Below, one piece after another: positions 7,078 through 12,142 of a DNA stretch of 64,000 nucleotides. Position 1 is the first letter of the stretch. Each line of letters begins with the position of its first letter. The stretch lies in contig CAWJZV010000024.1 in assembly GCA_963847445.1 (NCBI GenBank), forward strand, positions 96,001-160,000, given 5' to 3'. Under the pieces are notes generated by a model, which did no database searches, was not told the origin of the DNA, and saw only the letters and a list, made by a program, of their open reading frames with translations. The position numbers and the translations under genes were made by a program. This DNA is from an uncultured delta proteobacterium (GTDB lineage Bacteria > Desulfobacterota > Binatia > UBA9968).

Positions 7078-9314
7078 TTATTGTTGTTGGACTCGCAACG
7101 CGCGATAAATCGTCTCGGCACTTACCGGCAGATTAAACAGCCGCACGCCAACCGCGTCGGCGATCGCGTTGGCGATGGCCGCCGGCGGCGCGTTGTTGGC
7201 GAACTCGCCGATGGGCTTGGCGTTGTGCGGGCCGACGCCGCCGCCGGAGGTGACTAGAACGGTTTTCAACTCGAACAGATCGGCGATGGACGGCAATTTG
7301 TAATCGCCGAGATTATTGTTGGTCACTTTGCCTTGATCGATGACGATCTCTTCCATGAGTCCCTGGCCGACGCCCATCACCGCCGCGCCGTCGATCTGCC
7401 CCTGATGCGTCAACGGATTGATGATCGTGCCGACATCGTGGGCGGTGACGAAGCGATGGAGTTTCACCGCGCCGGTCTCGGGATCGACTTCGACCTCGGC
7501 GACCTGTGCGCAGATGTACGAAAACTCGTCGGGTGCGCGATAGTCTTCATAGACGGTAACGAGCAGCGGTTCCGCCGTTTGAGCGACAACCCGGCGCAGC
7601 AATACTTGTTGGCCCCGGATCTTGGCGCAGCGAAAACTTGCCGCCGTCGAAGTCGATGTCTTCGGCGCGGCATTCCAACATGCGCGCGGCTTGGGCGAGT
7701 AATTTTTCGCGCAGCTCGTCGCAGGCTTTGATCATGGCATTGCCGGCGACGTAAGTCATGCGGCTGGCGCGCATGCCGCCGTCACGCGGCGCCGTGTCGG
7801 TGTCGCCGATGACAACACGCACATGGTCAATGCCGATTTTCATCCGATCGGCGACCAACTGGCGCAAGATCGTGTGCGTGCCCGAGCCTTGATCGATGCT
7901 CGGGCTGACGATTAAGTAGCCGCCGTCCGCTTCGGCGCTGAGAATCACGCCGGTGTCGCCGCCGCTGATATGGCGGCCCGAAAGCGCGATGCCGCGCCCA
8001 TGATTGGCTTTCTTCGGTTTCTTCCAACCGGCGGCGTCCAGTGCGCCTTGGAGCACTTCACGAAAGCGCACGTCTTTCAACTCTTGACCGACCGCGTCGG
8101 CTTCTCCGTCGCTAAGAAAGTTCTTCAGGCGAAACTCAGCGGCATCTATAGCCAGTTCTTTGGCGATGATGTCGGTGTGGCAGTCCACCGCGAATGCCGT
8201 CGCCACCGCGCCGGGACTGCGGTAGTAACCGCCAGGGACGGTGTTGGTATAGATCTGCATGAACTCAATGTCGGCGTGCTCGATGCTGATACTGGCCCCC
8301 GGCATAGTGCCAGGTCGCCAACGACGTATTGGACTTGAGCGCGCCGTATCCGCCGCTGGCATGGACGGCGCGCATTTGCCGCGCGACCAGCCGGCCGTCG
8401 CGCATTACCCCGCTCTTGATCGTGATCACCGTCGGATGCGCCGGATTGCTCGCCGACAGCTCTTCGGCGTAGGTCATGATGAACTTCACCGGCCGCCCGG
8501 TTTTCTGCGCAAGAAAATAAAGGATCGGCAAGTCGACACCGTCACCCTTGCCACCGAACTCGCCGCCGACGTTGACCACGTTCATGCGGATGCGCTCTTC
8601 GGCCAAACCCAGGCATTTGGATAACTGGCTGCGCACTCCGAAGGGATTTTTCACTCCGGCCCAAACTTGCACGCGGCCGTCCGGCTCAATCGCAACGGTC
8701 GCCGCGTGCGGTTCGAGGTAGCCTTGATGGCGCGCCGGTACATTGAAAGTGTGTTCGAATACCAGATCGGCGTCGCGGAAGCCTTGCTCGACATCGCCTT
8801 TCTTCCACGCTAATCGCGTGAGACCGTTGCGCAGGTCGGCGGCGAGAATATTCTTCGGCGCGCCATCGTACTCGGCGACATTGTCATGGAGCTGCGGCGC
8901 GTCCGGCGCCATCGCTTGCAGCGGATCGAACACCGCGGCAAGAATTTCGTAATCGACGTCGATCAATTGAATGGCTTCCTCGGCGGCATCCACGGTCTCC
9001 GCCGCCACCGCCGCCACCCGGTCGCCGATGAAACGCACTTTGTCCCAGCACAGCACCGGCAAGTCGCGAATCTGCTTGCCGATAAGCAGCCCGCGCACAT
9101 CCGCGCCGGTGATAATCGCCTTCACCCCGGCAACTTTCTCCGCCTTGCTGGTATCGACGCGGACAATCCGCGCGTGCGGATGCGGACTGCGCAAGATTTT
9201 CGCCCACAGCAGCCCTGGCAGCTTCACATCGGCGGCATAGATCGACTGGCCGCTGACCTTGTCGCCCGCCTCCGCCCTCGGCACCGACGCCCCAATCGCT
9301 TTGAATTCAGCCAT
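7078..9314 (-). CDS. Xanthine dehydrogenase family molybdopterin-binding subunit, frameshifts near 8290 and 7610
   Basis: Three consecutive ORFs reconstitute one protein: ILRSPHPHARI, HQGYLEP, GGEFGGK, DQGSG, AHDVG.IINP...GQIDG, AKPIGE; colinear with the intact paralog at 31697-33937. Confidence 0.88.
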
Positions 9315-9856: not shown

Positions 9857-10958
9857 TCACAGCCCATACAACGCCTTGGCATTGTCGCTGAGGATTTTCT
9901 GTTTCACTTCCGCTGACAGATCGGTGCGCTCTTTGAAAATTTTAATCGCGTCGACATCGCTCGAGGTATCCATGTGGCCGTAGTCGGTGCCGATGACCAG
10001 ACAGTCCGCGCCGCCGTTCTCGACCAGATAGGGCAAGTCGTCGGAGTTTTCACAGGTGACAAACATGCCGTAGTCGCGCGCGATGTTCTCCGACCAGGGC
10101 CGGTCCAAAGTCTCGAAAACGGTTCTTGGCTTCGTGCAGCACCCAGGGCAGCCACTGCGCGCTGGCTTCGATAAAACCCCAGCGTAGTTTGGGAAATAGT
10201 TGATGGACGTCGCTGAGCATCACATCGCTGAACGCCGCCACCGTCGGCACGCGGAAGCGATGCAACCCCGCCGCCTGCGACACCGGATGGCGATAGAGAT
10301 CGTTGAGCCAAGTGTTGCCGTTGGCGATATGCACCGCGATGGGAATGTCGAGCTTCTGCGCTTCGTCGTAAATCGGATAGAAGTACGGATCGGCGAGCAA
10401 GCGGCTGCCTTCGATGGGCCGCATTAAAACGGCGCAGGCGCCATGCTGCTTGGACCAGCGGATTTGGTCCAACGCGTCCGGCATGCTCAAGATCGGCGGC
10501 ATGCACGACCATAAGAGACGCCCCTTGCCATGTTCCCAGATATCGGCCAGCCATCGGTTCCAGCTTTTGCACAGCGCCACTTCCACCGCGGCCCGTTCGG
10601 TCACGCCCTCGATGAACATGGTGTTGTGCAGCACTTCGACATCGACGCCGGTCTGATCCATATGTTCCAAACGCATGTCGACATTGCCCATCTCGCGCGA
10701 CGCATCCATGTCGGCGAACTTGCGTCCCGCCTGTTTGGCGCGTTGTTCCAGCGCCTCAGGGGAGAAAGCCGGGAATCGCAAACCACGCACCTTGCCATCG
10801 ACGAGCCAAAACTGCTGCTTCACGCCGCCCTTCTCAGCGGTCTGCAACGGTGTCGGCCGGTACTGCCGCTCCGACGGATCCATGAACTCCCAAGTCCGCT
10901 CGCACTCGACAACATGCGCGTCCGCATCGATCACAATCGCCTGTCCATTGGTCGTCAT
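9857..10958 (-). CDS. Amidohydrolase_2 family protein, frameshift near 10105
   Basis: GGAGA RBS; IDADAHVVE, IAVH, FPKLRWGFIEAS, GTDYGHMD, ILSDNAKALYGL. Confidence 0.85.
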
Positions 10959-11048
10959 GTTTAAATCTCCTCTTCGGCCCGAGACTATTTGATCGTGCTG
11001 CATCCTGTCAATATTGCGGAGCGCGAGGAGTTTATTTTCACCACGAAG

Positions 11049-11256
11049 TGTCCATAACTTACGCTCGTCTACAGAATATGAAAATGGATGGACTCCCTCC
11101 ATAGGCGGTCTGCTTGAACGCGTCGTTCCCGCGCACGCGGGAATCCAGGTTTGGTCTGCGCCCAATTGGCCTGGATTCCCGCTTTCGCGGGTATGACGGA
11201 ACCCAGGTGACCTCTTCGTTGTGCAGACCCTCTCCTTGCACGTATTTTCTAAGGAG
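11049..11256 (+). mobile_element. Non-autonomous mini-element family A, copy 2
   Basis: 208 bp after CACCACGAAG; CTTACGCTCGTCTACAGAATATGAAAATGG...GTATTTTCTAAGGAG; internal REP doublet about 11121-11199. Confidence 0.75.
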
Positions 11257-11442
11257 GTTTCGTAGGGTGTGTTTCGCGTTCCAGGTTGCAAAGAGGGCGG
11301 GTTTCAAACCCGCCCCTACATTTCGGAATTCTTTTTGCGTTCTTTGCGGCCAAACTCCAGATCCAATCCACGTCCTTCGTGGTGAAAGAGTCCGACCCAT
11401 CTCAGCCTCGACCGTCTAATTCAGTTCTGCTAGTCTCGCGTC

Positions 11443-11888
11443 ATGAATCTGGCAAGACAATCTTCTGACCACCACCGATGAGATCCGCGATCTAATCAAT
11501 ACAAACCAAACGGATCGCCGTCCTCGGCATCAAGACCGACGCTCAAGCCGACCAGCCGTCGGTGTACGTGCCGCAGTACATGCAACGCGCCGGCTTCGAG
11601 ATCATCCCAGTGCCGGTGTATTACCCGGACGCTACGAAAATCTTAGGTGAGACGGTTTATCGCCAGCTAACCGCCATCCCTGGCGACATCGACATGGTCG
11701 ACGTCTTCCGCCGCCCCAACGACATCGCCGGTCACATCGAAGACATCTTGGCGAAGCGACCCAAGTCCGTCTGGTTTCAATCCGGCATCCGCAACGACAA
11801 GGCGGCGGAGATATTCGCCAAGGCGGGGCTAAAAGTAGTCCAAGACCGCTGACTGATGGTCGACCACCGGCGGTTCGCCGGGAATTGA
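11443..11888 (+). CDS. CoA-binding protein (YccU/COG1832 family), probable selenoprotein; two 5' indels
   Basis: Reconstructs as MNWQDNLL..KRIAVLGIK..IDMVDVFRRP..VWFQSGIRN..VVQDR(TGA)LMVDHRRFAGN; TGA 11850-11852 sits at the family DRC cysteine. Confidence 0.8.
11850..11881 (+). promoter_or_regulatory. Putative bacterial SECIS element
   Basis: Stem CCGGCG (11867-11872)/CGCCGG (11876-11881) with a G-first apical loop about 20 nt after the in-frame TGA. Confidence 0.65.
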
Positions 11889-11984
11889 GATCGTTTGGGG
11901 TTACGAGTTTCGGGTTTCGAGTTTTCGGACTGCCGCGGCGAATTCAGGCTGCTCGATATTTTGCGAATCTAGCAACTAACGATC

Positions 11985-12052
11985 CGTCATACCGGCGCAG
12001 GCCGGCATCCATCCCCTTTTTCCTCTTAGATTCCGGCCTGCGCCGGAATGAC
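11985..12052. repeat. CGTC-type REP doublet (REPIN-like)
   Basis: cgtcataccggcgcaggccggcatcc...gattccggcctgcgccggaatgac; others at 51484-51568, 56763-56872, 57940-58019 and inside family A elements. Confidence 0.85.
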
Positions 12053-12142
12053 AGAAAACGGGGCGATTTGAACTGGGCTGACGGCTTCCACTGAACTCGA
12101 AACCCGAAACTCGAAACGCCGAATCGCGCGCAATGCGTACGC

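Follow-up and report, generated by a model that had tools for sequence, protein, structure and literature searches.

An in-frame UGA at the invariant cysteine of a CoA-binding protein from Binatia: a probable selenoprotein form of family PF13380

The locus and its predicted product

At positions 11443-11888 on the plus strand of a 64,000-nt stretch of DNA (hereafter the window, meaning the whole stretch analysed) from an uncultured delta proteobacterium (GTDB lineage Bacteria; Desulfobacterota; Binatia; UBA9968; GenBank assembly GCA_963847445.1, contig CAWJZV010000024.1, positions 96,001 to 160,000 of the forward strand), we identified a gene for a stand-alone, single-domain protein of the coenzyme A (CoA)-binding family PF13380/COG1832, of the YccU/YneT/TT1466 type. 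The Pfam model CoA_binding_2 matched at 113.7 bits (cut-off 22.8) over profile positions 2-115 of 116, with a score of 107 bits in the whole-genome scan. Directly 3' of the codons for ...AGLKVVQDR stands a TGA, past which the frame remains open to a second TGA (Table 1). We consider it very likely that this gene encodes a selenoprotein in which selenocysteine (Sec) replaces the invariant Cys of the D-R-C motif of PF13380, with UGA recoding, a leaderless mRNA, chemistry on the CoA thiol and frame breaks due to assembly error as the overall explanation.

Every element described by an earlier reading of the letters alone (the sequence-only reading) was found in the window. That reading had placed the first TGA after VVQDR with the frame running on as LMVDHRRFAGN, as sequence and translation both bear out, and had named a DRC...VEH motif for COG1832, which solved structures of the family do carry (DRC or NRC at the site). 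Intact orthologs comprise 146-151 codons, within the size class of single-domain proteins of about 135-150 residues, and begin with M-N/S/T-WQDNLLT..EQIRDLI..TK-RIAVLG. The predicted product is a single-domain protein of about 147 residues that, by homology, would bind CoA; in its Sec form it contains no other Cys.

Table 1. Features of the gene and its immediate upstream region (window coordinates).
Feature	Position	Strand	Remark
-35-like hexamer TCGACC	11408..11413	+	17 nt upstream of the -10-like hexamer; putative promoter element
Extended -10-like element TGC-TAGTCT	11428..11436	+	Ends 6 nt before the ATG at 11443
Start codon ATG	11443..11445	+	Orthologous to the start of intact relatives (M-N/S/T-W-Q-D-N-L-L...)
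First extra base, AAT-C-TGG against AAC-TGG in orthologs	11448..11449	+	Shifts the frame by +1; from ortholog alignment
Second extra base, in ACAAACC	11503..11504	+	Shifts the frame by +1 again; leaving it out restores the INTTKR of orthologs
Body of the CoA_binding_2 domain, RIAVLG...VVQDR	11511..11849	+	PF13380, 113.7 bits; PDB 1iuk, E 1.5e-24
In-frame TGA, read as Sec, at the invariant Cys of the D-R-C motif	11850..11852	+	
C-terminal tail LMVDHRRFAGN and true stop TGA (11886-11888)	11853..11888	+	Identical or nearly so to the tail after Cys in homologs
SECIS-like hairpin, 6-bp G+C stem with GUU triloop	11867..11881	+	Present in all type-A Sec forms

Alternation of TGA and Cys codons among homologs

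Based on a survey of 123 genomes of the window's order, we identified orthologs (matches at E up to 1e-30) in 70 genomes, of which 28 possess an in-frame TGA and 42 do not. TGA forms were found in 19 of 20 cases in genus g1, in all four in genus g12, and in 5 of 19 in g3, a genus of another family. These counts include three unpublished genomes, one among the TGA rows (G005) and two among the rows without TGA (G076 and G079), and the conclusions are independent of all three; the TGA of one further genome (G019) is known only from a split match. An apparent TGA in genome G100 was rejected, as it corresponds to the gene's own stop, with TGT at the site itself. Direct reading of the codon covered a set of 20 loci of the order (15 TGA loci of g1, two TGA loci of g3 and three TGC loci of g3), the 80 described next, and a set of 16. 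In the loci read directly, the text at the site is always VVQDR-[TGA or TGC/TGT]-LMV(D/E)HR.

Of 335 species-level matches across bacteria, the best 80 comprise nine with TGA and 71 with TGC or TGT. All nine TGA species are metagenome-assembled genomes (MAGs) labelled delta proteobacterium, Thermodesulfobacteriota, Binatia or Syntrophobacter sp. SbD2; the 71 Cys species belong mostly to Pyrinomonadaceae and other Acidobacteriota. The sequence-only reading had called for a search for alternation of TGA with Cys at this very codon, and both the order-level and the species-level survey reveal it. Of 400 other genomes drawn from the phylum, 35 have a homolog, none with an in-frame TGA. The PF13380 family as a whole comprises 3575 clusters at 50% identity (E up to 1e-3); the site is covered by 85 of the best 150 of the 3575 representatives, all 85 of which have Cys, and three representatives end at ...KVVQDR. 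Two representatives (P0218 and P0248) were also observed in which (H/E)-D-C-I-G-C-R-R-A replaces Q-D-R-C-L-M-V, giving a CxxC-type motif at the same site; such a dithiol variant would fit a redox role of the family.

The peptide encoded after TGA stays in frame, has the same LMV(D/E)HRR as follows Cys in homologs, and ends at a homologous stop. Since the TGA, the downstream frame and a hairpin described below recur in every close ortholog, the feature is more than chance. Public gene calls end at the TGA position in 108 of the 120 best hits, and these 108 cover 92% of the query. All six of the TGA-stopped proteins that were inspected end in VVQDR, and all 12 full-length hits have Cys. The 108 cut proteins are 135 residues long, or longer at the N-terminus, and are named 'CoA-binding protein' or 'hypothetical protein'. 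In MAGs the family is systematically mis-annotated, with hundreds of public gene models ending 10-13 residues short at the UGA and losing the key residue.

To place the two forms relative to each other, a quick tree was built from 104 of 116 rows (the 12 left out include L143 and duplicate sequences). Sec forms fall into two clusters, one comprising g1 and g12 and the other a subset of g3. The labels on the tree need four changes, and well-supported branches force at least two switches, which suggests that Sec forms arose at least twice in the order, in two clades. A Cys form nested within the Sec clade was also found in a genome of the same genus (G085; L091, equal to L178): it possesses TGC at the site, retains the stem CCGGCG/CGCCGG with the loop CTT (CUU) instead of GTT, and continues with the tail LMVEH. 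This looks like a recent reversion from Sec to Cys in which the G of the loop was released.

A conserved stem-loop within the last ten codons

The sequence-only reading had also noted a hairpin, CCGGCG-GTT-CGCCGG, about 20 nt downstream of the TGA, and this observation stands. The two arms of the stem occupy 11867-11872 and 11876-11881 and the loop 11873-11875, such that the stem begins 15 nt and the loop 20 nt after the TGA, within the last ten codons, and the same element recurs in close orthologs. All type-A Sec genes (those of g1 and g12) read CTGATGGTCGAYCACCGGCGGTTCGCCGG after the TGA, encoding LMVDHRRFAG, and fold into a stem of 6-7 bp with a GUU loop starting 20 nt after the UGA. The Sec clade of g3 possesses a different hairpin (type B), GGUCGCC-GGC-GGCGACC, with a loop from 23 nt after the UGA, overlying a different tail peptide (HRSPAAT...).

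Conservation among 19 distinct type-A genes is concentrated downstream of the TGA: the ten codons after it differ by 5.4% per pair, compared with 21.5% in the 113 codons before it, and at third positions the pairwise difference is 14% after and 46% upstream. Across 104 upstream windows of ten codons, none reaches the conservation of the stretch after the TGA. Among Cys forms the same codons are free to vary at the third position, and the tail peptide is variable.

In both hairpin types the first base of the loop is G, and G as the first base of the apical loop is a feature of the bacterial model of the selenocysteine insertion sequence (SECIS). The loop starts, 20 nt after the UGA for type A and 23 nt for type B, lie inside what we take to be the 16-37 nt range of the bSECISearch model. 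Like bacterial SECIS elements, of which that of E. coli fdhF is an example, the hairpin is a stem-loop that lies within the coding region shortly after the UGA and opens its loop with G. It differs from them in being very small, with a stem of 6-7 bp, a 3-nt loop and no bulged U, and in lying within the last ten codons, where it reaches almost to the stop codon. A terminator scan called no terminator on the hairpin, and no run of U residues follows it.

Selenocysteine machinery of the genome and its relatives

The genome contains a selA-selB-selD cluster (contig C14:191492-195726; L029), in which selD has an in-frame TGA of its own, at what we take, from the E. coli SelD motif, to be the known Sec/Cys site. 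Among 41 relatives, selA was above cut-off in 38 and tRNA-Sec scored at least 73 bits (73-78) in 29. A check for the sel machinery, advised by the sequence-only reading, was thus answered in part: selA, selB and selD are present, an intact tRNA-Sec gene is not in this assembly, and selA and tRNA-Sec are each found in most relatives. The single 'SeC' call by ARAGORN (C2:139122-139203) was dismissed as a false positive, since it folds poorly and matches nothing in Rfam at E up to 1.

Genes resembling the alpha subunit of formate dehydrogenase were also identified, split over many frames, at C34:150173-153150 and C48:73414-75492. In the C34 copy, a TGA stands in frame within profile positions 91-147, presumably about where FdhF has its Sec, and this copy is probably another selenoprotein gene of this genome.

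Frame breaks and assembly quality

Several observations weigh against the selenoprotein reading, some concerning the hairpin and others this particular copy and genome. Selenium incorporation, strongly supported as we consider it to be, is deduced from sequence. By itself, the stability of the hairpin is ordinary: its region has a minimum free energy of -16.9 kcal/mol (z -1.55), and 13 of 200 shuffled sequences fold as well. Folds of 48 nt average -16.0 kcal/mol for Sec forms and -12.0 kcal/mol for Cys forms, with overlapping distributions (n = 26 and 74, some from duplicate genomes). Among 25 distinct Sec-form sequences, variation within clades amounts to one G-C to G-U change in the stem (L036) and one change in the loop (L044), which is too little stem variation for covariation to be testable within clades. 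A comparison of the hairpin region with Rfam gave chance matches only and no family, a further difference from SECIS elements of the fdhF type.

The gene as assembled is also spread over three frames, which the sequence-only reading had missed: the ATG at 11443 belongs to frame 1, IWQDNLLTTTDEIRDLINTNQ (11447-11509) to frame 2 and, from 11511 onwards, RIAVLG... to frame 0. Compared with genome G014, whose sel genes are intact, selA has one frame change, selB four and selD one, with the pieces 87-98% identical, and selA contains an in-frame TAG. The Rfam model for tRNA-Sec returned only tRNA-Ser and tRNA-Leu from this assembly, at up to 45 bits, and Rfam gave no match near the sel operon. The tRNA-Sec gene is represented solely by its first 23 nt in the interior of contig C4 (about 239463-239485; L183:2464-2486) and its last 23 nt in the interior of contig C12 (about 77580-77602; L184:7581-7603), while the middle 45 nt, with the anticodon, are absent from the assembly. 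Some 50 nt separate the 3' piece from a gene for a tyrosine integrase (L184:7654-8856, minus strand), and a comparison of C4 with genome G003 revealed a 7.7-kb insertion next to the tRNA-Sec piece. Two explanations offer themselves: selC was struck by a mobile element or a rearrangement in this population, or the bin is misjoined at this point.

To examine how common such breaks are in this assembly, we compared it with a congener (G007), from which 274 open frames of at least 200 codons were drawn from twenty 20-kb stretches. An ortholog was accepted where the best piece was at least 70% identical and at least half of the frame was covered, and 161 frames qualified. Of these, 46 are frame-broken in the present genome, with 70 changes in 179 kb, or at least 0.39 per kb, and 42 of the 46 broken G007 frames carry Pfam families (E up to 1e-5). 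Affected genes include valS (six breaks), mutS (two), purC (two), secD, thiC, and those for TsaD and a class A penicillin-binding protein; rpoB is intact. As the organism cannot have valS, mutS, secD, thiC, purC and others all broken, the assembly must be rich in insertion/deletion (indel) errors. The reverse control, in which open frames of the present genome (G000) were set against G007, found frame changes in 27 of 172, largely antisense shadow frames that register the same indels. Such antisense frames confound this control, and it is the Pfam check that gives the breaks their polarity. Neighbours of the gene within the window are broken as well: a xanthine-dehydrogenase-like gene (7078-9311, minus strand) is spread over three frames and an Amidohydro_2 gene (9857-11288, minus strand) over two. 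The bin is 91.8% complete with 6.9% contamination.

For the gene itself, a short-read contig of 231 nt from another sample (run X2), 94% alike with 14 substitutions, lacks bases 11401, 11448 and 11503. A second contig from this run (11791-11977) shows no difference at the TGA, and a contig from an RNA run (X16) covers 11866-12000 only and is uninformative on expression or read-through. At the TGA and the extra bases, the comparison comprised contigs of related strains, and no public sequencing run held at least half of the sampled words of the stretch (best 0.41). We consider it likely that the two frame breaks are base-insertion errors of the assembly and not gene decay, and rate them as probable and not as proven errors. 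Findings of frameshifts or pseudogenes from this genome need an indel caveat, and the locus serves as a caution for annotation, with a real recoding signal lying beside artefactual frameshifts in an indel-rich assembly.

Alternative explanations

An explanation in which the frameshifts, the broken sel operon and the disrupted tRNA-Sec are all real would have the gene, and perhaps the whole Sec trait, dying in this organism. We consider this unlikely, and it would concern this genome only, leaving the finding at the level of the family untouched. Consistent with decay, both breaks of the gene fall within 62 nt of its start, selA-selB-selD have six frame changes in about 4.4 kb against the genome-wide rate given above, selA has its in-frame TAG, and the tRNA-Sec gene is split over two contig interiors with an integrase abutting the 3' piece. 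However, the breaks in 46 of 161 genes, essential ones among them, point mostly to assembly artefacts; breaks cluster elsewhere too, as in the two neighbouring genes, and the pieces of the sel genes remain close to their intact orthologs. Further, this copy matches the clade consensus exactly in its TGA, tail and hairpin, the TGA of selD is retained, and the completeness and contamination of the bin also speak against real loss.

Far less probable are two explanations that dispense with Sec altogether. The UGA might be read through without Sec-tRNA, by a near-cognate Trp or Cys tRNA or through a lineage-wide reassignment of UGA. In its favour stand only the absence of direct selenium evidence and the tRNA-Sec missing from this assembly, and we regard this explanation as very improbable: the 1373 codons of rpoB run without an in-frame stop, so UGA is not generally reassigned; nearly all relatives possess the Sec machinery; and a UGA exactly at the Cys position together with a stem-loop is the standard signature of Sec. 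We give marginally less credence still to the TGA being a true stop, with a protein of 135 residues ending in ...VVQDR and the hairpin acting as a terminator or regulatory element. This is how most of the best database hits are annotated, and a G+C-rich hairpin does lie 3' of the TGA. Yet the cut product would miss the residue that is Cys in every family representative covering the site, the text after the TGA continues in frame to a homologous stop with the LMV(D/E)HRR of the Cys forms, the hairpin has neither a run of U residues nor a terminator call, and two clades with different hairpins both preserve the frame. Together, the TGA/Cys alternation, the conserved downstream frame and stem-loop, and the Sec machinery of the lineage support the DR-U-LM selenoprotein that the sequence-only reading had proposed.

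Upstream region

The upstream region suggests a transcript that is probably leaderless or nearly so. In 19 of 21 distinct upstream sequences of type-A Sec forms, TGnTAnnnT precedes the start codon by exactly 6 nt, and in one of the 21 a tetramer resembling a Shine-Dalgarno sequence occurs; given this fixed spacing and the near-absence of such a tetramer, a leaderless mRNA is a reasonable reading. The sequence CTCGACC, which includes the -35-like hexamer, is found at the same place in many orthologs. Against a promoter here, a scan for the strict sigma-70 consensus returned no promoter and did not call the TCGACC hexamer. The proposal of a leaderless gene in the sequence-only reading, which had located TGC-TAGTCT correctly, gains support from this recurrence among orthologs.

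Proposed mechanism and relationship to characterized proteins

In the mechanism we propose, transcription would start from the extended -10 element ending 6 nt before the AUG, yielding a leaderless mRNA. The UGA at 11850-11852 would be recoded by the ordinary bacterial route, with the stem-loop CCGGCG-GUU-CGCCGG recruiting SelB-bound Sec-tRNA(Sec), and translation would continue past the UGA for 11 more residues to the true stop. The single Sec (U136) would then lie beside the thiol of the bound CoA and might form a transient Se-S bond, so that Sec, or Cys in other members, may attack or hold the CoA thiol through a mixed Se-S or S-S intermediate. An adjacent Se-S bond between Sec and CoA would therefore imply thiol/disulfide exchange specific to CoA and not mere CoA binding, and we infer such an exchange for the Sec form. 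Sec almost always marks a redox-active catalytic residue. Its presence at the invariant Cys gives a widespread family of unassigned function, including E. coli YccU and B. subtilis YneT, a testable mechanism.

With solved structures available for the family, we compared the product with its closest matches. These comprise 1iuk/1iul (TT1466 of Thermus thermophilus; E 1.5e-24), along with 2d59/2d5a and 2duw, among which E values of 1.2e-17 and 6e-15 were obtained, and Cys occupies the site in all of them. The ADRCLMVEH of TT1466 (1iuk) aligns to QDR[U]LMVDH. TT1466, PH1109 of Pyrococcus horikoshii (2d59/2d5a/2e6u) and the protein of 2duw share the same domain over its full length, are of the same size, are named CoA-binding by their depositors, and have the same C-terminal (A/M/Q)(D/N)RC followed by residues resembling LMVEH. 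They differ in possessing Cys where the protein studied here has UGA/Sec, and in lacking a SECIS. To our knowledge, the cellular function of these three proteins is still unassigned.

Another relative offers a link to chemistry. According to PMC8127865, Cys126 of B. subtilis YneT (PF13380, 135 residues), in the motif TVIMDLC126IK, is disulfide-linked to CoA in spores. YneT, from a Firmicute, is likewise small and putatively CoA-binding; it represents the Cys form, and its Cys126 lies nine residues from the C-terminus, matching VVQDRU136 in motif and distance. By motif and position, Cys126 would thus correspond to the residue that is Sec here. As CoA is attached in vivo to what would be the homologous Cys of YneT, thiol or selenol chemistry on bound CoA is likely. 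Covalent chemistry on the CoA thiol is also the mechanism that the Sec form implies, in line with the CoAlation of YneT.

A precedent for Se-S(CoA) chemistry exists among catalogued bacterial selenoproteins. In the CoA-disulfide reductase class, the active-site Cys enters into a mixed disulfide with CoA. A Sec-containing FAD-dependent oxidoreductase of this type (TIGR03385, motif UGxP) is listed in the selenoprotein tables of PMC13188914 and PMC9312934. That selenoprotein is a large flavoprotein of unrelated fold with Sec near its N-terminus, and is not homologous to the protein described here.

More tentatively, and with doubt outweighing confidence, PF13380 might constitute a 'CoA-redoxin', a CoA-specific counterpart of the monothiol glutaredoxins that would keep CoA in its pocket and in which the single Cys or Sec of D-R-C forms and resolves mixed disulfides with CoA, the Sec forms of this selenoprotein-rich deltaproteobacterial order being natural high-activity variants. 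If so, the reactions might be the removal of CoA from CoAlated proteins, or the handling of CoA disulfide or persulfide, and the Sec forms would reveal the catalytic residue of YccU, YneT, TT1466 and thousands more.

As a mechanism, the proposed recoding is the usual one of bacteria; the protein family appears to be absent from the selenoprotein catalogues examined. The family-table passages of PMC9312934 (2022) and of the main text of PMC13188914 (2026), the latter of which counts 'more than 110 families' of selenoproteins, contain no CoA-binding, PF13380, COG1832 or YccU entry. The family is likewise not in the BSepDB paper or the supplement of it that was examined (PMC13326102), nor in the deep-Sep paper (PMC12013277), and NCBIfam has no matching selenoprotein model. 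A full-text literature search on a Sec form of PF13380, COG1832, PH1109, TT1466 or YccU returned nothing relevant, with subscription papers outside its scope and other naming possible. The present gene and its orthologs would add a family to the bacterial selenoproteome.

Gene neighbourhood and flanking repeats

The gene stands alone between opposite-strand genes for an amidohydrolase and an alpha/beta hydrolase, so its neighbourhood offers no functional clue. Short repeats flank it at window positions 11893-11924 and 11300-11345 (GTTACGAGTTTCGGGTTTCGAG... and GGTTTCAAACCCGCCCCTAC). These match many contigs of all four sequencing runs compared, with a summed depth of up to 230 in run X4; variants occur 3' of the gene in orthologs, and they look like small dispersed repeats of the lineage. 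Further downstream, at 11976-12060, lies an inverted repeat, taccggcgcaggccggcatcc ... ttccggcctgcgccggaatgac, which resembles short G+C-rich palindromic repeats found elsewhere in these genomes.

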